31,692 bases of DNA from a virus (lineage: Duplodnaviria; Caudoviricetes), in the IMG/VR virus record IMGVR_UViG_3300023246_000533, positions 1-31,692 of that record, one strand, 5' to 3'. The translations under genes and the position numbers were made by a program. Below are positions 640 through 28,453 of this stretch, one piece after another. Position 1 is the first letter of the stretch, and each line of letters begins with the position of its first letter. The notes beneath the pieces are model-generated. The model had not been told where the DNA came from. It saw only the letters and a list, made by a program, of their open reading frames with translations, and made no database searches.

Positions 640-701
640 AATTTATAACAGTTAATAAAAGCCATTGAAACGGCTTTTATTTTAGTGTTACCTACAAGTG
701 C
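640..701. repeat. attC-like hairpin site downstream of the C5 methyltransferase (could also act as a terminator)
   Basis: TAAC...GTTA cores flank a 10-bp stem AATAAAAGCC/GGCTTTTATT (654-663/672-681). The site starts directly after the MTase stop codon. Confidence 0.55.
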
Positions 702-1370
702 TTAATTCTGTTCATTAAACAAAGTTGGTGCTTCAATCTCTTTTTCTTTTCTTTTTTCTTCCCGCGCTTTTTCAAAAACATACTCACCAATCTTTGGGTT
801 TACCATATTTCTAACTAATTGTCCTCTTTCAAACCTTTTATCTTTACTTCTATTTTCTGGGACATCTTTTATGCAATCAAAAATAGACCAGTCAATCATT
901 CGTTCTTTTAATAAATCTTCTTTTTTAGACCTGCTTATATCAATATTTGTAAACTCTTTTTCTTTAATTTTAAAGTTTGTCCAAAATGGATGCCTTCCTA
1001 AAATAACACTTGGTTCAATTAAATAACCATAATAAGGCACTACATTTTCAACCACATATTTACCTTTAAACCAACTATTCAATAATATAATTTCTTGGTA
1101 TAATTTAAAATCAATGTATTGCTTTTCCTTTTTAGCAAAACACATTCTACTATGTGTCGGACAAGGTGGCGAACTCCAAATAAAATCGTATTCTTTGTAA
1201 TGGTCAAGTAAGTATTGATGTGCGTCTGTAACTATTACTGTATCATTTGGGTATTGCTCTTTGTAAACTTTAGCAATATTATCATTATATTCTATTGCTG
1301 TTATTTCGTGTTCATTTCCCCATAACATTCTATTACCACCGATTCCAGCGTATAAATTTAGTATTCTCAT
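702..1370 (-). CDS. DNA (cytosine-5) methyltransferase, short orphan type
   Basis: Motif I NLYAGIGG, catalytic SPPC, ENV motif. Confidence 0.9.
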   Translation of the reverse strand: MRILNLYAGIGGNRMLWGNEHEITAIEYNDNIAKVYKEQYPNDTVIVTDAHQYLLDHYKEYDFIWSSPPCPTHSRMCFAKKEKQYIDFKLYQEIILLNSWFKGKYVVENVVPYYGYLIEPSVILGRHPFWTNFKIKEKEFTNIDISRSKKEDLLKERMIDWSIFDCIKDVPENRSKDKRFERGQLVRNMVNPKIGEYVFEKAREEKRKEKEIEAPTLFNEQN

Positions 1371-1461
1371 ATATTTTAATTTTTCAAATTAATTTTGCCA
1401 TCGCTCAAAAAAGAAAAGAAAAAGGTTCAGTTCTATTAGTTGAGTTTTAGCGTTTAAATTC

Positions 1462-1534
1462 GCACCAGTAGGTAACACCGTATATAATTCAGTTGTGAAA
1501 AACAACCGAAATCATATACATTTCGTTATAAATT
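1462..1534. repeat. attC-like hairpin site upstream of the C5 methyltransferase
   Basis: GGTAAC-acc-GTATAT...imperfect stem (TTCAGTTGT/ACAACCGAA)...ATATAC-atttc-GTTATA. Its core flanks are complementary to those of the 640-701 site. Confidence 0.55.
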
Positions 1535-1556: not shown

Positions 1557-1781
1557 TTAACAGTTTTCAATATTTTCCAATTTCAAATCCTCACCAAATT
1601 TCGCCTTAGCCACAGCCCTATCTAATTCATATCTTAAAATATTATTAGCCTGTTTTGCCAAGTTCCCCTGAGCCTTTGCTTCATCAACAGTTATGACATT
1701 AGAATTTAATTTATCCATTTGGTCGCATAAATGAATAAATATTGATTTACTACTTGCTTGTTTCTTGCTTATTAGTCCCAT
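1557..1781 (-). CDS. hypothetical phage protein (helical)
   Basis: ORF track; co-oriented and overlapping the upstream gene. Confidence 0.6.
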   Translation of the reverse strand: MGLISKKQASSKSIFIHLCDQMDKLNSNVITVDEAKAQGNLAKQANNILRYELDRAVAKAKFGEDLKLENIENC

Positions 1782-2049
1782 TTGTTTTAAGTTTTAAATT
1801 ATATAATTTTATTAATTCTTCATTAGCCACTATGTCAATATATTTAGTTTTTGCAGATATTTGAGCCAACCTAATCATCACATCAACATATTCTTTACCA
1901 CTAAGTTTATTTAATTCTGACTTCATTTTGCTTAACCCATCTTCAAAAATATATTCACAAAATTTAATCACAAAACCAGTTTTTTTATTTGGCACTCCTT
2001 TAGGTCTGCCATTTGGATTATTCGTGTTTCCTTTTCCTACTCCTTTCAT
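1750..2049 (-). CDS. DUF5681-like / terminase-small-subunit-like protein (paralog 2)
   Basis: N-terminal GKGNTNNPNGRPKG motif; ATGA overlap with paralog 1. Confidence 0.6.
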   Translation of the reverse strand: MKGVGKGNTNNPNGRPKGVPNKKTGFVIKFCEYIFEDGLSKMKSELNKLSGKEYVDVMIRLAQISAKTKYIDIVANEELIKLYNLKLKTNGTNKQETSK

Positions 2050-2309
2050 TTTGTTTTACCTGTTAATGTGGATAAAATATATTCATTTGCTACAATAGTA
2101 TTTTGTTCGTCTGTAACAAATTTTGATAACTTAATAAATACACTTACATATTCTTTGCCCTCAAGCTTATTAAATTCAGTCTTAAATTTTTCGCCTCCTC
2201 CATCAATAATATAACTGCAAAATGTATTAAAATATGCCGATGTTTTATTCTTTTTGCCTTTTCGTTTCCCTTTCGGGTTTCCACTTTGTCCTTTCTCGAA
2301 TTTTGCCAT
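2046..2309 (-). CDS. DUF5681-like / terminase-small-subunit-like protein (paralog 1)
   Basis: FEKGQSGNPKG motif; probable ATG start at 2309 (MAKF) rather than TTG at 2339. Confidence 0.65.
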   Translation of the reverse strand: MAKFEKGQSGNPKGKRKGKKNKTSAYFNTFCSYIIDGGGEKFKTEFNKLEGKEYVSVFIKLSKFVTDEQNTIVANEYILSTLTGKTK

Positions 2310-2313
2310 AGTT

Positions 2314-2625
2314 TTAAAGATTTCGATTAATTTTTTCAATGTCTATAATTAGCCAGTCGGTATTTCTGATTTCGTTGCCGTCAATATCGTATAACATAAG
2401 GTTGTGAATATCGCAGGAAATTGAACCACGTTTGCAATGACATTGACCGGAGTCTCTATCTTGCTCCCATTCTCTTGTGTCGATTATTTCAACATCAAAT
2501 TCAAGATTGTAATGAGTGTTACCTATTGTTAGATCGATTTCAAATCTATCAGATTTTGGCTCTTGCTCGATTAAAGCAAATATCTCATCTGTGATATGTA
2601 CTTTTTTTGTGATTGATTCTACCAT
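2314..2625 (-). CDS. hypothetical acidic protein
   Basis: ORF track; A-rich start context. Confidence 0.55.
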   Translation of the reverse strand: MVESITKKVHITDEIFALIEQEPKSDRFEIDLTIGNTHYNLEFDVEIIDTREWEQDRDSGQCHCKRGSISCDIHNLMLYDIDGNEIRNTDWLIIDIEKINRNL

Positions 2626-7458: not shown

Positions 7459-8435
7459 TTTACTACTTTGTTATTATTTGTTACAATCTTTTCAGAATCC
7501 CACCAAGTAGCAGGAAATTCTCTCGTAACTTCACCTGCGTTAATTACTGGTGCAACAGCTGAATATTGAGAATTTCCATTTAATAAATAAGGTACTAAAA
7601 CTTTTTGACTGCCATATTTTACGTATGTCATTCCGTAATCTTCACAATAAGTATTAGTATTATCTGTATTCCAATAATCAGCACCATGTATTACTGAATG
7701 ATGATTATTACCACTTACATCATAGACCGTGTCATTGAATCCATTTACACAAGGAAAAAGACTAACATTTGAAGCATTGTAATTAAAATCATACAAACTG
7801 TCTACTCCTGCCTGATTTACACTATAATCTTTTATTGCTATATTGTGCATGCTTCCTGAAAAATGCAATATTAGAGCTCCAGAATTATTTGCTACACCTA
7901 TAAATAAATTATCTGTACAATTTCCTGTCGATAATACAGTAAAGTTTTTCTTATATGTTGTGGTTAAAAGTCCCTTATCAACATAAAATTTTATATTATC
8001 TCCTGCTGCATTAGATGTTACTAATATATGATGCCAATTATTATCTGTTATTGTAGCTCCATTATCAGAATGGCAATCTACTACTGGACCTCCTGCACCT
8101 TTAGTCATACTAAGTCTAATTGCCTCATCTCCGTATCCGCCTCCTGCGGTTTCCCATATAAGAAAAAATCCTTTTCCAATTGTACTTATACTATTACTTG
8201 CAATTGTTTGTCTATTAGCTAAATTATCAATTTTTATCCAAACAGAAATTGTAAATATATTTGTGTTTTGGATAAAAGAATATACGTCTAATCCATTATT
8301 ATCTTCAATGTAATTATTTGCACCATCACCTTGAAAACAATAATTACCAAGAGTGTAATTAGCAGGATATACTAAAACCTGACTATTTCCAATTAAGGCA
8401 AATAAAATTAATAATATTGTTAATAGTTTTTTCAT
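7455..8435 (-). CDS. LamG/concanavalin A-like domain protein with Sec signal peptide
   Basis: FTISVWIK, WHHILVT, IKFYVD, LFIG, FSGSMHNIAI LamG motifs; signal MKKLLTILLILFALIGNS|Q. Confidence 0.8.
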   Translation of the reverse strand: MKKLLTILLILFALIGNSQVLVYPANYTLGNYCFQGDGANNYIEDNNGLDVYSFIQNTNIFTISVWIKIDNLANRQTIASNSISTIGKGFFLIWETAGGGYGDEAIRLSMTKGAGGPVVDCHSDNGATITDNNWHHILVTSNAAGDNIKFYVDKGLLTTTYKKNFTVLSTGNCTDNLFIGVANNSGALILHFSGSMHNIAIKDYSVNQAGVDSLYDFNYNASNVSLFPCVNGFNDTVYDVSGNNHHSVIHGADYWNTDNTNTYCEDYGMTYVKYGSQKVLVPYLLNGNSQYSAVAPVINAGEVTREFPATWWDSEKIVTNNNKVVK

Positions 8436-14073: not shown

Positions 14074-17000
14074 ACCACGTTGTTGAATTACCCTCTCTTT
14101 TGCCGATTACTCTACCGTCACTACTTATTATTTCTTGATTTGAATTATTTACTAACTGCTTTAAATATCCATTTGTTTCTCCGAAATCAACATCTGTTTT
14201 ATTATCATAGAATTGTTGTAACTTCAAGTTATTAGCCGCATTGGTAAAACTTTCAATTTCACTTCCATATTTTTTGGTCGCAGGTCTTGAAAATATTGCT
14301 CCCATTTCGCCTTTTTCAAACTCTTTATTTCCATAAACATTACCACCTTGTGAGTGTAATTGTCCGCCCTCTACCCATGTTCCGCCATGTTCAAACTTTT
14401 GAGTTAAGACCATTGCCGAAGCTGCGGCTGCCCCTATTATAGCTTTTATTGATAATGATGCTGCGAGAGCAGTAGATGCAGCCAACCCAACAACAGTTAT
14501 ATTCAAAGGGTCTGCTGCACGTTTAGCAGCAATTGAAGACAATTCTAATGCAAGATTAACACCGATTTCAGCTATTGCAATAGCTTGACGTTTTTTAAAC
14601 GCCTTTTTTTCTATTTCTAATCTTTGCGCATCTGTTAAGTTTTCATTTTTCAGTTTTTCCCGTTCTGCATTGGAAGCTAATTGGTTTGCAACATCAAATG
14701 CAGATGCATTTATTTCTTGCAAATATTCAATTTGCCTCACTCGTAATTCCTTTCTTTTTTGATATTCTTCAACTTGTTTTGCAGTAATCCTGTCTTCTTT
14801 GTCGGCTTCGCCATCAACTTCATCTCCCCATTCAATCGCTAATAATTCAACTTTTTCTTCTTTGTATTTCGTATCTATTTCATCTTTTTTCTGCAGTCTT
14901 TCAAATTCCAATAACTCCATATCTCCACCAAACTTTATAAAATCTGCTTTTTGCTTTTCGTACCAAATTTTCAAATCTTCAAGTTCTTTTTCCCTGCCAT
15001 CAATTCCAAAAGTTCGCATCTTTAAATCAAATGCTGCTTGTGCTTTTAGTTTTGCATCATTTCCTTTGCTTCCACCGCCTCCGCCTGTATCTTCATCGAT
15101 TGTGTCAACTCCGCTACCTGTATATAGCTCATCTTGCGTATCTGTTAATTCTTTTAATTTTGCATCCAAAGCATCAACATTAGCCCCCCATTGCTTATAA
15201 TCTTCAACGATTTTTTGTGATTCCACTGGGTCATATCCACCAAAATTAAAAACATCTACTTGTCCTACTCTTTTAAATTTTTTGAGTTTTTGAATATGTT
15301 TATCAATACCCTCTTTGTCCGCCTTTTCAATTAATGCCTTGTTTTCGTCAATTTGTTTTTTGGTTTCTCTTATTCGCCTATCATGTGCTGTTGACTCTAT
15401 GACTAAAATTTGTGCATTACCTTTGGCAATTACCTGTTTATATATTTCGGCTTCTGATAATGTTAAATCAAAATTTTCTTTTATATATTGTTCTTTTAAT
15501 AAAGTTCCTGCCTTATATGACCTTTTCATATATGCCATAATTCCCTTTTCGGTATCAATTCTTTTTCTCATACTGTCCTCGAGGTCAAATAATGACGCTT
15601 TCTGAACAGCAAGCTGTTTACGATATGATTCGCTTAAATTTTCCTCACCTGCAATTACTTTGTTTAATTCATTTACTAAAATAGTTAAATAATCGGTTGC
15701 TGTTTTAATCGTTCCGCTGCCATCGCTTATACTTAGAATTAACCCCTCCCATGCAGATTTTAATTTAATTGTCGAACCTGCAACGTTATCCAATTGTTCT
15801 TCCGCCATTCTTTTAGCAGCACCACCTGCACCCTCTAAAGATGTTTTTAATTCATCTGCGGACTCTGCACCCTCTAAAAATGTTGCAAATGCAGCAACAC
15901 TTCTTTTATCCGTTAATTGTAAGGTTGTATTTAGGTCAACTCCTTCGCCTCTTAATTTTACTAAAGCAGGTATTAATTCATCAAATGAATTTACAGAACC
16001 ACCCAATTTTTTAGCTAACTTCCCATTACTGTCGGCAAGATTTAATAATATATTACGTAAAGAAGTGCCCATCATTGAGGCATCAAAACCTGAATCTGAT
16101 AATTTACCAAGCAATGCAGTTGTTTCTTCAATGGAAAATCCAAATTGTTTAGCAATCGGGGCAACCTTTGGAAGTGCGGTTGCGAGTTTTTCCATTGTTA
16201 AAGCACTTTGCGAAGTTGAAGCTGCCATTACATCAGTAACTCTACCCATCTCAGAGGCATCCAATCCAAAGGCTCTTAATGCAGAACCTGAAATCTCAGC
16301 CGCCCTTGCTAAGTCCGTACCAGTTGCGGCTGCTAAGTCCAATATGCCACCAGTAGAATAAAGTATCTCACTTGTTATAAATCCTAATTTTGCAAGTTCT
16401 GTTTGTAATCCCGAAACTTCCGAAGCCGTGAAAGCCGTTGTACTTCCATATTTCTTTGAACTTGCTGTAAGCTCTCCTATTTGGTCTTTAGTAGTTCCAA
16501 GTATTGAGGCTAACTTACTTTGTGCTTTTTCAAACTGAACAGTAACATCAAACATTCTTTGTAATCCACGAAAAGCAGCCCTTACGCCAAATGCTCCCAA
16601 CATCATTATTCCGACTTTCTTTAAAGAGGCACTTAATCTTTGCAGTCCGCTATTATATTTTTTGGTTGCGCCAGTCATTTGACCCATTCTTGTTTTATTA
16701 TTGTCAATGACTTTTTGATATGCTAATGCTTTTTTCCTGCCCTGTTCTGTTGTTTGATTTACTTCTTTTAGTCTTTTTATTAAGAGCTTATTTGCAAGTT
16801 CAAGTTTCTTAACGCTTCCGGCTCCTGCTTTTTGCCATTGAATCTGTAATTTTTGTAATTTTAAGTTTTCCTGATTTGCGAGTTTTTGTTCAGTTAATGC
16901 TTTTGTGTATTTTTTATCAGTAGTGATTGACTTTACAATTTGAGTCTGTAATTGCTTTTCAACTTTGAGTTTTTCCTTTTCGATTAAGGTTTGTTTGTTA

Positions 17001-17173
17001 ATCGCTCCACTTAAATTATTTAGATTGTCTTTGTATTTTTGTAATGAAGCACTATCAGTAATTGGACTTTTTTTCATTTCCACACCAACTTCTTTAATGG
17101 CTTGCTTATTCTTATTATACGCTTTTGTTAGTTCGTTTAATGTATTTAGATATTTTGTGAATATATTTGCCAT
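14066..17173 (-). CDS. tail tape measure protein (TP901-family core)
   Basis: 1035 aa, helical; GSTTAFTASEV..LAKLGF..LDLAAATG..LRAFGLDASEMGRVTDVMA..AKRMAEEQLDNVAG...LKSAWEG. Confidence 0.93.
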   Translation of the reverse strand: MANIFTKYLNTLNELTKAYNKNKQAIKEVGVEMKKSPITDSASLQKYKDNLNNLSGAINKQTLIEKEKLKVEKQLQTQIVKSITTDKKYTKALTEQKLANQENLKLQKLQIQWQKAGAGSVKKLELANKLLIKRLKEVNQTTEQGRKKALAYQKVIDNNKTRMGQMTGATKKYNSGLQRLSASLKKVGIMMLGAFGVRAAFRGLQRMFDVTVQFEKAQSKLASILGTTKDQIGELTASSKKYGSTTAFTASEVSGLQTELAKLGFITSEILYSTGGILDLAAATGTDLARAAEISGSALRAFGLDASEMGRVTDVMAASTSQSALTMEKLATALPKVAPIAKQFGFSIEETTALLGKLSDSGFDASMMGTSLRNILLNLADSNGKLAKKLGGSVNSFDELIPALVKLRGEGVDLNTTLQLTDKRSVAAFATFLEGAESADELKTSLEGAGGAAKRMAEEQLDNVAGSTIKLKSAWEGLILSISDGSGTIKTATDYLTILVNELNKVIAGEENLSESYRKQLAVQKASLFDLEDSMRKRIDTEKGIMAYMKRSYKAGTLLKEQYIKENFDLTLSEAEIYKQVIAKGNAQILVIESTAHDRRIRETKKQIDENKALIEKADKEGIDKHIQKLKKFKRVGQVDVFNFGGYDPVESQKIVEDYKQWGANVDALDAKLKELTDTQDELYTGSGVDTIDEDTGGGGGSKGNDAKLKAQAAFDLKMRTFGIDGREKELEDLKIWYEKQKADFIKFGGDMELLEFERLQKKDEIDTKYKEEKVELLAIEWGDEVDGEADKEDRITAKQVEEYQKRKELRVRQIEYLQEINASAFDVANQLASNAEREKLKNENLTDAQRLEIEKKAFKKRQAIAIAEIGVNLALELSSIAAKRAADPLNITVVGLAASTALAASLSIKAIIGAAAASAMVLTQKFEHGGTWVEGGQLHSQGGNVYGNKEFEKGEMGAIFSRPATKKYGSEIESFTNAANNLKLQQFYDNKTDVDFGETNGYLKQLVNNSNQEIISSDGRVIGKREGNSTTWYD

Positions 17174-17742
17174 TATCTTTTTGTTTCAATATCTGTTTTA
17201 AAATTCTCCACCATATATAAAAATTCTTTTATACTGATTGCTTTTGTGTCTATTCTGTATTTGTAAAAAGTTGACATTTTTGCGGCAACCTTAAACAAAC
17301 TTTCATGTTTAGAGAATTTAAAACTTTCCAATTCCCTGTTTTTCATTTTAATTTGAGTAATCATTGAGCGGTCATCTTCGCCTAAATACTTACAGACCAT
17401 TATGTTTTTGCTTCGTTCTTTGTTTACATAATAGGAATACTCATCAGACATTTCAAACTCATCAATTAATTGGTTTGATATTAATTGCATTTCCTCAGGA
17501 TATTCGCCTTTAAATCTGCCTTTACGTAAATAACAAGTAGTTCCTTTATCGACTATCATTATGTAATTCCATGCACGTAGATTGTCAATCGTCGAGTACA
17601 GACGTATAAAGTATTTTTTTTCCAGTCTTTTCAGCAATAGAATACTCCATAATATCACATCTTTGACTACATACTCGAATGACACAATATATTTTATTCT
17701 TATCCTTTGTAAGTCGATCCGATAATTCTTTATACTTATCAT
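17173..17742 (-). CDS. putative tail assembly chaperone
   Basis: Directly upstream of the tape measure gene (position only). Confidence 0.45.
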   Translation of the reverse strand: MISIKNYRIDLQRIRIKYIVSFEYVVKDVILWSILLLKRLEKKYFIRLYSTIDNLRAWNYIMIVDKGTTCYLRKGRFKGEYPEEMQLISNQLIDEFEMSDEYSYYVNKERSKNIMVCKYLGEDDRSMITQIKMKNRELESFKFSKHESLFKVAAKMSTFYKYRIDTKAISIKEFLYMVENFKTDIETKR

Positions 17743-18176
17743 AAGCCATTTAATGCCTTGTTTAAATCAATATCTAACTGCTTTTGCACTCTTGCTTCAA
17801 AATTCTTTTCATATTTTTTAACAAGCATATCTTCATCTTTTTCGGTCAGCCCCTCAATGTCGTCGCCATATCTGTTTATTAAAACTCCGCCTAAATCTGC
17901 ATTTGTTTGGTCAGGTTCTAATATTATTTGATTTGGCTTTAAAAATATTTTAAATGACCTATGAAACTCCCCCGACAAAAACAGCGTAACCCTATTTATA
18001 ATCTTACCATAAGGGCTACTTCCTTTTTTCTTTTTTACTTTTTTATAAGGATTTGAGTATAGGGGTTTAATAGCTTTTTCTTTACTATCCTTACCCCTTC
18101 CCAACATATCACTATGCAGTTGAACAATTTTCTTTTCATTGTCCTTTACTATTTGTTGGAATATCCTTACAAACAT
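17739..18176 (-). CDS. putative neck/tail-completion (HK97 gp10-like) protein
   Basis: Basic, LFLSGEFHRSF motif resembling the L.xTG.F..S motif of virion morphogenesis proteins. Confidence 0.5.
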   Translation of the reverse strand: MFVRIFQQIVKDNEKKIVQLHSDMLGRGKDSKEKAIKPLYSNPYKKVKKKKGSSPYGKIINRVTLFLSGEFHRSFKIFLKPNQIILEPDQTNADLGGVLINRYGDDIEGLTEKDEDMLVKKYEKNFEARVQKQLDIDLNKALNGL

Positions 18177-18196
18177 AAAAAAGGGGCAAAAGCCCC
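18177..18196 (-). terminator. intrinsic terminator after the major tail protein gene
   Basis: Minus strand GGGGC-TTTT-GCCCC-TTTTTT, ending right at the next ATG. Confidence 0.75.
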
Positions 18197-18202
18197 AATT
18201 TT

Positions 18203-19108
18203 TTAAGGTACTACAACAGAACCAGTCGCAACGTCATATTTAGAATAGCTTACTTTCAATGTGTAAGTATGTGCTGTTGTTAACAGCGCTGTTTTGCTTA
18301 TAGTATATGTCCCATCAGGACTTTCTACTAAGTCCTCCGCAGCCGCTACTGGAATAGCAATAGTTGGAGCAATTGCATCATAAAAATTAAATGCCGTATA
18401 TGCAGCCCCTGTAACCGCATCATCATAACGCTCAGTGTCAATTACTGCAACACATCCAGTTGTTGCTGGACTTGAAATTGTAATATCAGCATCGGTTAAA
18501 CTCCAAAAATCTGTTTCGTCGAAAATATTTCCATCCGCAACTTCAACTAACCAAAAATCATTCATATCCTTTGGATTTGCGATTTGGAAAGTTACCGTAG
18601 CCATTGATGGTGTTTCACGGTCAGGAATTGAAAATTTAGTTACAGCCATTGACTGCACTTCTAAAGGCACAAGATAAGTTGCATCTTTACGACCGCCTGC
18701 TTGGTTTTTATCATCAAAAAGATAAATCGCAAGTTTAAGGTCTGAGTTTTCACTGATTTTTTTAATATAATCAGCTACTTTGTCGTAAAATGTTCCAGTA
18801 AACTGAATATCTCCGTCTGCCAATTTTTTGTAAAAACCATTTTCATTAAATACAGCATCTTCACTTGGAACTTGTTTAACCCCGAAAATTCTATCAGTAA
18901 ATACAATTTTTTCCAATACATCATCATCGAAATTGTATTTATCAATTAAGGTTTGCCAGTTTGCTATTGCTGCTGCATCAGTTAATAATATTTTATTTGT
19001 AGTACCATCTTCTTTTTTGTAAGATGTTAATACAAATTTGACAGTTTCGCCCATATCCAAAGGACATGAACCACTACCACCGTTTGATAAAGCTGGATTA
19101 CAACCCAT
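18203..19108 (-). CDS. putative major tail tube protein
   Basis: Size, acidic beta-rich composition, C-terminal Ig-like extension, position, followed by a terminator. Confidence 0.65.
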   Translation of the reverse strand: MGCNPALSNGGSGSCPLDMGETVKFVLTSYKKEDGTTNKILLTDAAAIANWQTLIDKYNFDDDVLEKIVFTDRIFGVKQVPSEDAVFNENGFYKKLADGDIQFTGTFYDKVADYIKKISENSDLKLAIYLFDDKNQAGGRKDATYLVPLEVQSMAVTKFSIPDRETPSMATVTFQIANPKDMNDFWLVEVADGNIFDETDFWSLTDADITISSPATTGCVAVIDTERYDDAVTGAAYTAFNFYDAIAPTIAIPVAAAEDLVESPDGTYTISKTALLTTAHTYTLKVSYSKYDVATGSVVVP

Positions 19109-26397: not shown

Positions 26398-27585
26398 TTA
26401 CCAAGAGACAAGCCCTCTTTTGCGTTTATTTGTTAATTTCATCATACAAATATATCGTATTGCATCAATGCCATGGTTAAAGTCATCAATTGGCTTTCCT
26501 GTTTTCTCTCCAGTCTTACTTACCTCCCATTGATAATTCCTAAATTCTTTGATTAAGTTTGTTGAATTTGTATCAACATTTAATTTATACTGAAGCATTA
26601 TGTCAATTCCGAAATTAATAGAGTCTTTGCCTTTGCTTACTGGTTTTATGTTCCAATTATTACGCCTTATTTCTTCAATGCTTTTAGGCTCTGCACTATC
26701 TGCTATTATACTATCATATTTTTTTATCTGTAAATCTGCAAAATCTTTGCAAATATCTTGATTTGTCAAGCCTCTTTGATAGATATATTCTTTTAAATAT
26801 AACTCATTGTTCATTTTATAGACTCCGATAAATGCTGTCGGATCATTAGTATATCCAAAATCTAAACCGTAACCTATTAACTTTGCCTCTCCCGGTAATT
26901 CACGAATAGTTATTTGAAACACCAATCCCTCAAGATTGCCAAGCTCTCCAAGTCCGTAAACTTTCCACCAATTAGTGTTTCCTTTCCTGTGTTCAATAGA
27001 TTTAATAATTTCATCTTCTAAAAACTCATTGTCTAAATAAGTTGAAGTAAAAAAGTAAATATCATCTCTTTTTAATAGTTCTGTGTGGACCCAAAATTCA
27101 TGAGTAGGATTGAAATCTAAAAATATTCTCTTTTTTGTTCTAATCTCTAATTGTGTAAATGCTTCATAGTTTACATTGTTACACTCATTAATGAAAAGAT
27201 AATCACGCCTTGCGCCTCTTAATTTTGCATGGTCATCAGCACTAAAAAACTCAATTCTTGAACCATTATCAAATGTATAAATCATATCTGTTCTGTTATA
27301 TGACTTATTGTTGAATGAATTTCCCATTATTGTATAAAAGTCCCTGATAACTCCACGTTTTAAGTGTGGCACGCTTTCGGCTACGACCGATATTAATACT
27401 TTTGGCTGTTTAATTGCGATTATTATAAGACCTTGGATTGTGCTGAAAGTCTTTGAACTGTTATGGACCAATATAGGACCATTACAATCTATAAAGTAGT
27501 TATGATTATCTTTTATTGACAAATCATAAACATAAGGCTCTTGCACCTCCTCTATTTTTAATATGTCGGACTTACACAATTCCAT
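26398..27585 (-). CDS. terL: split-intein C-fragment (42 aa, 27585-27460) fused to terminase large subunit C-extein (PBSX/Terminase_3 type)
   Basis: VYDLSI (block F), ILVHN|S (block G), then SSKT; KLRGARRDYLFINE (Walker B), DFNP, GLDFGYTNDP, ADSAEP, NHGIDAIRY. Confidence 0.93.
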   Translation of the reverse strand: MELCKSDILKIEEVQEPYVYDLSIKDNHNYFIDCNGPILVHNSSKTFSTIQGLIIIAIKQPKVLISVVAESVPHLKRGVIRDFYTIMGNSFNNKSYNRTDMIYTFDNGSRIEFFSADDHAKLRGARRDYLFINECNNVNYEAFTQLEIRTKKRIFLDFNPTHEFWVHTELLKRDDIYFFTSTYLDNEFLEDEIIKSIEHRKGNTNWWKVYGLGELGNLEGLVFQITIRELPGEAKLIGYGLDFGYTNDPTAFIGVYKMNNELYLKEYIYQRGLTNQDICKDFADLQIKKYDSIIADSAEPKSIEEIRRNNWNIKPVSKGKDSINFGIDIMLQYKLNVDTNSTNLIKEFRNYQWEVSKTGEKTGKPIDDFNHGIDAIRYICMMKLTNKRKRGLVSW

Positions 27586-28097
27586 ATTCCACGTCTACTA
27601 TTTACAATATCTTTAATATGGGCTTCACTTACATTGTATTTTTCTGCAAGTTTCTTTCTTCCATAATATCTACTTACACAATTTCTAACATGCTCTCTTA
27701 TTTCTTCAACATCCTGTTCGGTTAGTTTTGAGTTTCCATTCAAAGAGCCTCTTTTGGGTGTTATTAGACTATTTCTATAAGCATGTTTTATATTTTCACT
27801 TCTAGTTGTGTATTCTAAATTATTTATATTATTATTTGTTTTATCACAATCAATATGATTTATCTCTTGTCCTTCCTTGCGTGGTCCAAAAAATGCTAAT
27901 GCTACAAATTTATGTACGGTCCAACTACTATATTTACCGTTATCATCTAATAACATTGTTTTCATGTAACCGTCTTTTGACTTGGCAGGCTTTAATACTC
28001 TTATTGTTTTACTACGCTTATAATTCAATGAACGTAACCTTCCTAAATCTGATGCTTCATAAGTACTGAAGTTCGGTATTGCTTTCCAATTTTCCAT
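27558..28097 (-). CDS. free-standing NUMOD4-HNH homing endonuclease between the intein halves
   Basis: Probable ATG 28097 (MENWKAIP..YEASDLGRLRS); EINHIDCDKTNNNINNLEYTT.SENIKH; C-terminal HTH; different frame from both intein halves. Confidence 0.92.
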   Translation of the reverse strand: MENWKAIPNFSTYEASDLGRLRSLNYKRSKTIRVLKPAKSKDGYMKTMLLDDNGKYSSWTVHKFVALAFFGPRKEGQEINHIDCDKTNNNINNLEYTTRSENIKHAYRNSLITPKRGSLNGNSKLTEQDVEEIREHVRNCVSRYYGRKKLAEKYNVSEAHIKDIVNSRRGIWNCVSPTY

Positions 28098-28108
28098 AAT
28101 CTTTTTTC

Positions 28109-28453
28109 TTACAAAGATAGTAAATGTTTTAGAGAAATCCAAACCCCCTTGACATAAAATTCATGGTCCTCTGTGCATATTATTGTACTGCCATTTTTCA
28201 ATGTAATCTTATATGTTTTTTTAGTGTTCACAAACCTAAATATATCTTGGACCACCTTTGTTTCTATCTCTTTTGTTTCTTCATTGAACGTCTGGACCTG
28301 TTCTCCTGTTTTAATCTTTGATATTTCAATACTTCCATTAATTGTTTGTATTAACTGATTAGGACCAAAACAAGATGTTCCGCCTTGTTGGATAGATATT
28401 CTTACAGTTTCGGCAACTAATTTGTAAAATGTTTTAGAATAAGTGGTAATCAT
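28109..28453 (-). CDS. terL: terminase large subunit N-extein (27 aa) fused to split-intein N-fragment (87 aa, from Cys at 28372)
   Basis: IQQGGTS|CFGPNQLI (block A), IICTEDHEF (block B TxxH), ends at TAA 28111-28109. Confidence 0.92.
   Translation of the reverse strand: MITTYSKTFYKLVAETVRISIQQGGTSCFGPNQLIQTINGSIEISKIKTGEQVQTFNEETKEIETKVVQDIFRFVNTKKTYKITLKNGSTIICTEDHEFYVKGVWISLKHLLSL
28112..28143 (-). promoter_or_regulatory. Bacteroidota promoter embedded in the 3' end of IntN, driving HNH/IntC-terL
   Basis: TTTG (28143-28140), 20 nt, TATCTTTG (28119-28112), 14 nt upstream of the HNH ATG. Confidence 0.65.

Follow-up and report, generated by a model that had tools for sequence, protein, structure and literature searches.

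What is a DNA methyltransferase gene doing between two hairpins with mutually complementary flanks in a phage genome and, if the arrangement is a mobile cassette, where does that cassette begin and end, and which enzyme moves it? An original prediction had taken this locus for an integron-type gene cassette, with its attC-like site directly after the stop codon and exchange at G|TT, and had seen in it a cassette-shuffling system for accessory genes in Bacteroidota phages. According to the available text of Ghaly (2021), Bacteroidota are among the phyla with integrons, and that of Loot (2017; PMC5371416) describes the origin of integron cassettes as largely unknown.

The phage and the methyltransferase locus

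The stretch of DNA analysed here (31,692 nt, hereafter the window) is a viral record whose terminase is closest to those of Flavobacterium phages (44.5%), and the public runs holding the phage are labelled salt lake or marine. Another assembly of the same phage, G001, is 99.8–100% identical over 25 kb, bridges both window ends and adds 10.3 kb, which points to a circular phage genome of ~42 kb, although CheckV puts the completeness of the two records at 41% and 48%. The two assemblies diverge abruptly at window position 8361 (G001 1–323), inside a 326-aa tail-region gene, and a variable host-range module is possible at this point. Elsewhere (26398–28453, minus strand), the terminase large subunit seems to be split, with a 114-aa Hint/intein ORF, a free-standing NUMOD4-HNH gene and an ORF of intein end plus terminase domains in that order; the likely explanation is a split intein with a homing endonuclease gene inserted in it.

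The predicted methyltransferase proved genuine. The ORF at 702–1370, on the minus strand like all cassette features described below, encodes an orphan C5 cytosine DNA methyltransferase of 222 aa that scores 31.8 bits with PF00145 (cut-off 22), and the catalytic PC motif could be read directly at approximately residues 70–71. No restriction enzyme gene is adjacent to it in the window, and relatives at 43–49% occur in Gordonia, Vibrio and Flavobacterium phages. A second orphan methyltransferase (PF01555; 3663–4298, minus strand) has no site detected nearby. At 1750–2339 (minus strand) lies an adjacent pair of paralogous small ORFs, one with DUF5681, that share a 62-nt repeat at 73%.

The paired flanks also stood at the positions first reported. 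The outer cores (640–649 downstream and 1525–1534, ending in AAC, upstream) are complementary at 10/10 positions, and the inner cores (687–701, the cassette 3' core ending in AAC, and 1462–1476, its 5' core beginning with GTT) at 13/15, the first nine contiguously. Enclosed by these cores, hairpin A (650–686, 37 nt) follows the gene and hairpin B (1477–1524, 48 nt) precedes it. As predicted, both fold, with z below shuffles on both strands: −4.3 (plus) and −3.2 (minus) for the site at 640–701, and −2.2 (plus) and −3.5 (minus) for that at 1462–1534, which folds better on the minus strand. A perfect inner inverted repeat of 18 bp (740–757 and 1407–1424, 18/18) had been overlooked. Its arms lie 52–53 nt inside the cores, the 5' arm in the leader that begins with the GTT core and extends as far as the start codon (1371–1476) and the 3' arm in the tail, within the coding sequence; the latter has a pairing probability of 0.7–1.0 in the folded coding strand. 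An Rfam scan of the window gave no matches, and a sigma-70 promoter scan, with a model not suited to Bacteroidota, gave matches at chance level. In the non-coding region at 231–600, where a perfect stem of ~17 bp lies at ~467–537 (z of the whole region −1.8), relatives ~93% identical are present at higher depth in three public runs, and a structured RNA or an origin is possible there.

The cores are inverted repeats in DNA of ~70% A+T, as would suit an invertible segment or repeats that arose by chance. However, when GTT/AAC pairs on the minus strand were compared at a spacing of 200–1500 nt, only 3 of 14,727 reached 13/15, the window pair included, and our hairpin-site detector found no sites in 20 block-shuffled windows; these two results, with the site family described below, exclude chance. 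The inner and outer matches together have a binomial probability of ~2e-8, calculated post hoc with the cores fixed. As to inversion, no strand-switch joint was seen in the contigs of eight runs, among the matches listed, and the gene lies on the folding strand at 17/17 viral sites of the hairpin B family. Inversion or chance is already contradicted, and we regard its probability as close to negligible.

The idea of cassette shuffling gained from the further sites in the same phage. A second array lies outside the window, at G001 15800–18500 (L082, L088), with six full or partial sites of both hairpin families, including one of the hairpin B family. Three of its cassettes have pairing ends (7/9, 9/9 and 12/14) and the ends of the first are unmatched. 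The array is closed by a 91% copy of hairpin A (G001 18428–18493), a hairpin found among viral contigs in this phage only. The array cargo comprises an N6/N4-type methyltransferase and four small ORFs; certain ORFs begin within a hairpin loop, and one site is without its right half.

Exchange points and polarity

As nested complementarity fits exchange at either hairpin foot, we examined breakpoints. Two Polaribacter phages in culture, P12002L and P12002S, have the same backbone as far as an AAC and then diverge; they also share a 1017-nt block (98.6%), bounded by AAC at both ends, that consists of an upstream hairpin and a methyltransferase gene, and this cassette is first in the array of P12002L and second in that of P12002S. 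Such reordering in cultured relatives again favours cassette shuffling. In the Flavobacterium phages mymlan6-1 and stinky9-1, homology resumes at the AAC after differing last cassettes. In the public runs X14 and X7, backbone contigs diverge from the phage left of 1524 and match it from there on, and in contigs of related cassettes from public runs, matching ends at 682–688. Near-identical hairpins stay linked to the coding-strand sequence on their 3' side: among pairs of sites with hairpins at least 90% identical, 17 shared the 3' flank only, none the 5' flank only and 131 neither, in a comparison of 197 distinct sites from the collected loci where pairs are not independent and five of the seven phage pairs stem from loci selected through the leader on their 3' side. 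Different cassettes can be preceded by an identical hairpin B, one and the same leader is found behind many types of hairpin, and in many arrays no hairpin comes after the terminal AAC of the last cassette.

From these breakpoints, we place the mobile unit at ~688–1525 (838 bp, ends ±4 nt), comprising hairpin B, leader, gene and tail, with putative crossovers at 688/687 and 1526/1525. Thus, the proposal of a cassette-like unit with self-complementary ends stood, but its polarity, gene first and then attC with exchange at G|TT, did not: the exchange points are at the AAC foot of the coding strand. The cassette's own attC-like site is hairpin B, before the gene, and not hairpin A after the stop codon, which appears instead to be a resident terminal site at the position of the insertion target, with its GTT-side core (640–649) staying in the phage. 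The circle and the empty site would each carry the hairpin opposite to the one first proposed.

Several observations could still be accommodated by a canonical integron cassette, gene followed by hairpin A as attC, which an IntI-type enzyme inserted into the hairpin B site at G|TT. The nested complementarity fits either way, both sets of predicted products fold, hairpin A comes right after the stop codon, and, over longer periods, hairpins have also been shuffled at their GTT side, as the 131 pairs that share neither flank show. In addition, IntI1 recombined one P12002L site in the available text of Qi (2023; PMC9892861). However, by the same text, P12002L attC1, the type studied here, had no verified IntI1 recombinant, and attC2, which did recombine, follows the last cassette and points the opposite way. 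The ratio of 17 to 0 site pairs favours linkage to the 3' side, the block common to the two Polaribacter phages is upstream hairpin plus gene, hairpin A has been duplicated in the second array together with its 3' flank (5' flank and cassette being different), the backbone breaks at 1524 and not at 1476, and there are the many last cassettes without a hairpin after AAC. The canonical polarity is largely refuted, and we consider it very unlikely. Folding energies of the predicted products were rejected as a test, as they do not separate the two polarities, and core partners were weakly informative (upstream versus downstream, 11 versus 4 of 17 viral sites and 12 versus 7 of 22 genome sites).

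The suggested search for an empty site in relatives found none. Neither an empty site nor a joint skipping the unit was seen in the contigs of 8 of 24 runs, among the matches listed, or in one metagenome scan; with the upstream flank as query, that scan returned two loci, L167, which is identical and carries the cassette, and a chance match. The 74-aa gene upstream has homologues at 58 loci, of which 15 were viewed; these gave no empty site either and proved uninformative, being at most 71% identical and in other contexts. A single contig in run X15 joins 1524 to 687, with 33 letters on the short side and a depth of 11 against 2–3 for the phage. We rejected this joint as proof of a circle; it may stem from the array of another phage.

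The hairpin B family in phages and host chromosomes

The right arm of hairpin B was found in 19 viral loci and 49 genome loci, mostly of Flavobacteriaceae, and the pairing left arm is present at 17 distinct viral and 22 distinct genome-contig sites; an identical copy of the hairpin occurs in the unrelated phage loci L085/L087. Whereas the next gene is always on the folding strand in the viral set, it is on the opposite strand at 19 of the 22 genome-contig sites (in two cases the gene is a tiny ORF; all three exceptions come from MAG contigs). In the chromosomes of Tenacibaculum, Lacinutrix and Litoribaculum, sites of ~118 nt form long arrays. We picked 51 genome-contig sites by their foot motifs, without regard to base pairing. 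Their stems pair in 508 of 510 cells, 79 being G-T, with no A-C seen, compared with 87% when partners are shuffled; the motifs themselves fix two of the ten positions in part, and the figures are not corrected for kinship. In the phage sites (n=7), covariation was no better than in shuffles. The excess of G-T over A-C indicates that the folding strand is the one that reads AAC-hairpin-GTT, with a spacer of 5–6 nt, and by this comparison it would equal the attC bottom strand. The host arrays have the canonical integron layout, and the phage genes are backward relative to their site. The first ten stem pairs are ungapped in the 51 sites; hairpin B has one extra base after ten pairs, on the crossover-side arm.

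These data also bear on whether the paired ends and the inner repeat act mainly in RNA, closing the transcript and controlling translation or decay, with the hairpins as terminators and mobility secondary. Both stems also form when the coding strand is folded as RNA, and hairpin A gives a terminator-like match, on the plus strand. However, by their G-T skew the chromosomal copies fold on the non-coding strand, and the breakpoints fall exactly at AAC. A primary role in RNA is highly improbable, although the inner 18-bp repeat may have a role there.

A shared frame around an ordinary phage gene

The methyltransferase cassette is a chimera of a phage-gene body and a leader and tail that it shares with other cassettes. 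The body (775–1382) is 86.2% identical over 608 nt to a gene in L002–L004 that lies among ordinary phage genes, with no sites and no paired cores, and homology to it ends at 775. From 772 onward, the tail (687–772: the last ~23 codons, the stop codon and the core) matches cassettes with unrelated bodies and is common to unrelated DNA-modification cassettes. The clearest case is L287, which encodes an N6/N4 methyltransferase: its leader and tail are identical to those of the window at 96/106 and 82/86 positions, and the proteins are alike only at the end. The P12002L/S cassette is 78% (leader) and 85% (tail) identical to the window, and mymlan6-1 is 76% identical in the leader.

The leader motif, which includes the 5' arm of the inner repeat, is present in 38 viral loci. 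After removal of three duplicates, eight loci without a usable ORF (four with none, four with a tiny one) and one cut gene, 26 full-length genes lie behind the leader, 25 of them with the complementary tail. Every one of the 26 is a DNA-modification gene, and no fewer than three unrelated families are represented: 22 N6/N4 methyltransferases, the C5 enzyme of the window, two adenine methyltransferases with weak scores and one Mom. A gene-less frame was not seen among the 38 loci. Conversely, the tail motif is absent from all 79 loci of C5 homologues, and paired cores at 9/10 are lacking in 57 of 60 usable ones. Cargo replacement within an existing frame would be the simplest reading of these comparisons, its direction and mechanism being putative.

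At L005 (2880–3650), a methyltransferase 76% identical to ours lies between different paired cores; it is translated from inside the upstream hairpin and adjoins tRNA-like sequence, and is a separate capture of the same gene family. The last residues of the shared tail (702–730, minus strand) form a PTLF-like motif, with a similar xxLF at the C-terminus of free homologues. This end resembles a beta-clamp binding motif, and by that analogy it could tie these methyltransferases to the replication fork. Orphan methyltransferases of phages have an established role in protection from restriction, and the job predicted by analogy for the window enzyme, that of shielding phage DNA from host restriction, is the likely one.

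A candidate recombinase

As originally noted, there is no integrase in the window: a PF00589 profile search found no tyrosine recombinase in either the window or G001, that is, in the ~42-kb genome, and the phage would presumably need one borrowed from its host. The earlier suggestion of an IntI-like enzyme for the shuffling fared less well, a XerA-like one being likelier. In Litoribaculum (L219), the first array core comes immediately after the gene for a tyrosine recombinase of 373 aa, and this protein and two relatives score best with the XerA-type model. The array-linked host recombinases score 188–199 with TIGR02249, for which the cut-off is 265, and align to IntI4 (2a3v) in two pieces with ~43 fewer residues between them, such that the IntI insertion is missing. 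Relatives occur in 61 of 81 Flavobacteriaceae genomes and, among the matches listed, a site lies at most 3 kb from the recombinase in 10 of the 19 genomes that have both a recombinase match and listed site coordinates. Of the viral loci with a relative of the recombinase, 5 of 57 show a site. In four phage loci, the recombinase gene starts shortly after the AAC that closes the array. A short non-hairpin stretch separates recombinase and first core in L219 and in four phage loci, and hairpin A is in the equivalent position in the window. A recombinase of ~270 aa lies directly after the last cassette in L226, L228, L230 and L244, which are candidate complete phage-borne elements. From these comparisons, the enzyme is probably a XerA-like tyrosine recombinase of the host and not IntI.

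The cassette might instead be a relic, moved mainly by homologous or short-homology recombination, such as phage single-strand annealing, between shared hairpins, leaders and tails, with no site-specific enzyme acting in this phage. The ~42-kb genome without a tyrosine recombinase would agree with this, as would G001 ORFs that presumably encode an annealing protein and a YqaJ-type exonuclease, the hybrid cassettes with unmatched cores in L312 and L323, and the abundance of both cassette ends in community contigs. However, the breakpoints lie at a 3-base AAC core whose flanks share no homology, the cores covary with the ends of their own cassette, and recombinase genes stand at array heads. We consider a relic of this kind unlikely, if less so than the canonical polarity.

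Discussion

In our judgement, it is probable that 688–1525 is a mobile cassette of an integron-like system common to Flavobacteriia and their phages, with hairpin B first, inserted at the foot of hairpin A by a host XerA-like enzyme, and that it arose by a cargo swap. The coding strand would fold as single-stranded DNA and, with the host supplying the recombinase, the cassette would enter at the AAC foot of the short resident site. The cut would fall between the A and C of AAC, as on the attC bottom strand of integrons (Bouvier, 2009; PMC2727003, available text). Excision would leave outer core, hairpin A and outer core in the phage, and a circle closed over hairpin B. As to its origin, an ordinary phage C5 methyltransferase gene would have displaced the previous cargo of a frame in which N6/N4 methyltransferases are the usual content; the joints, at the start codon and ~23 codons ahead of the stop, would probably stem from recombination at short homologies.

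The closest precedent found in the open-licence PMC and bioRxiv literature, and the only publication on this system there, is the CALIN report of Qi (2023; PMC9892861), which in its available text describes 17 phage CALINs, including that of P12002L with methyltransferases, and five of six tested sites that recombined with IntI1, the exception being P12002L attC1. Like the P12002L CALIN, the window has an array of hairpin sites in a phage without an integrase and with DNA methyltransferase cargo, with two sites 790 nt apart in the window, six full or partial ones in G001 and no PF00589 match; attC1 is a site of the window's type on the coding strand. In that text, two sites of P12002L were taken as ordinary attC and the cognate enzyme was not named; reversed gene orientation, host arrays, a XerA-like enzyme and a shared frame do not appear there.

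The likeness to integrons is extensive: the AAC...GTT sites fold on one strand, with an unpaired spacer beside the core and a variable loop (Bouvier, 2009, PMC2727003; Loot, 2017, PMC5371416; both as far as available), exchange would by comparison be at the AAC of the folding strand, cassette ends are self-complementary, and the chromosomal arrays have homogeneous sites of ~118 nt. In contrast to attC, as defined in the available text of Bouvier (2009; PMC2727003), the first ten stem pairs hold no conserved extrahelical base. Likewise unlike integrons, the linked recombinase is without the IntI insertion and fails to reach the TIGR02249 cut-off, each phage gene follows its own hairpin on the folding strand, and longer cores (9–15 bp) are joined by an inner repeat. 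The unit thus works like an integron cassette but is without three defining features, namely IntI, extrahelical bases and gene orientation. Compared with other orphan phage C5 methyltransferases, the enzyme is of the same family (PF00145), again with no neighbouring restriction enzyme, but its C-terminus would be borrowed from the frame of unrelated enzymes.

In summary, there is perhaps an even chance of a second integron system, independent of IntI, in Flavobacteriia and their phages, whereby folded single strands are the substrate of a XerA-like enzyme, phage cassettes are backward, and cassettes are born by gene swap into a reusable self-pairing frame. The enzyme linked to these arrays is without an insertion that the available text of PMC8138268 describes as essential for integron function, although not fully conserved in the wider subgroup. 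If this reading is true, the window catches the birth of a cassette, with a C5 gene 86% identical to a free phage gene in a frame 91–95% identical to one around an unrelated enzyme. Frame and cargo are each traceable to separate relatives, which bears on how cassettes first form, and cultured phages and hosts exist for the system. It would let the phages of a major group of aquatic bacteria trade anti-restriction genes.
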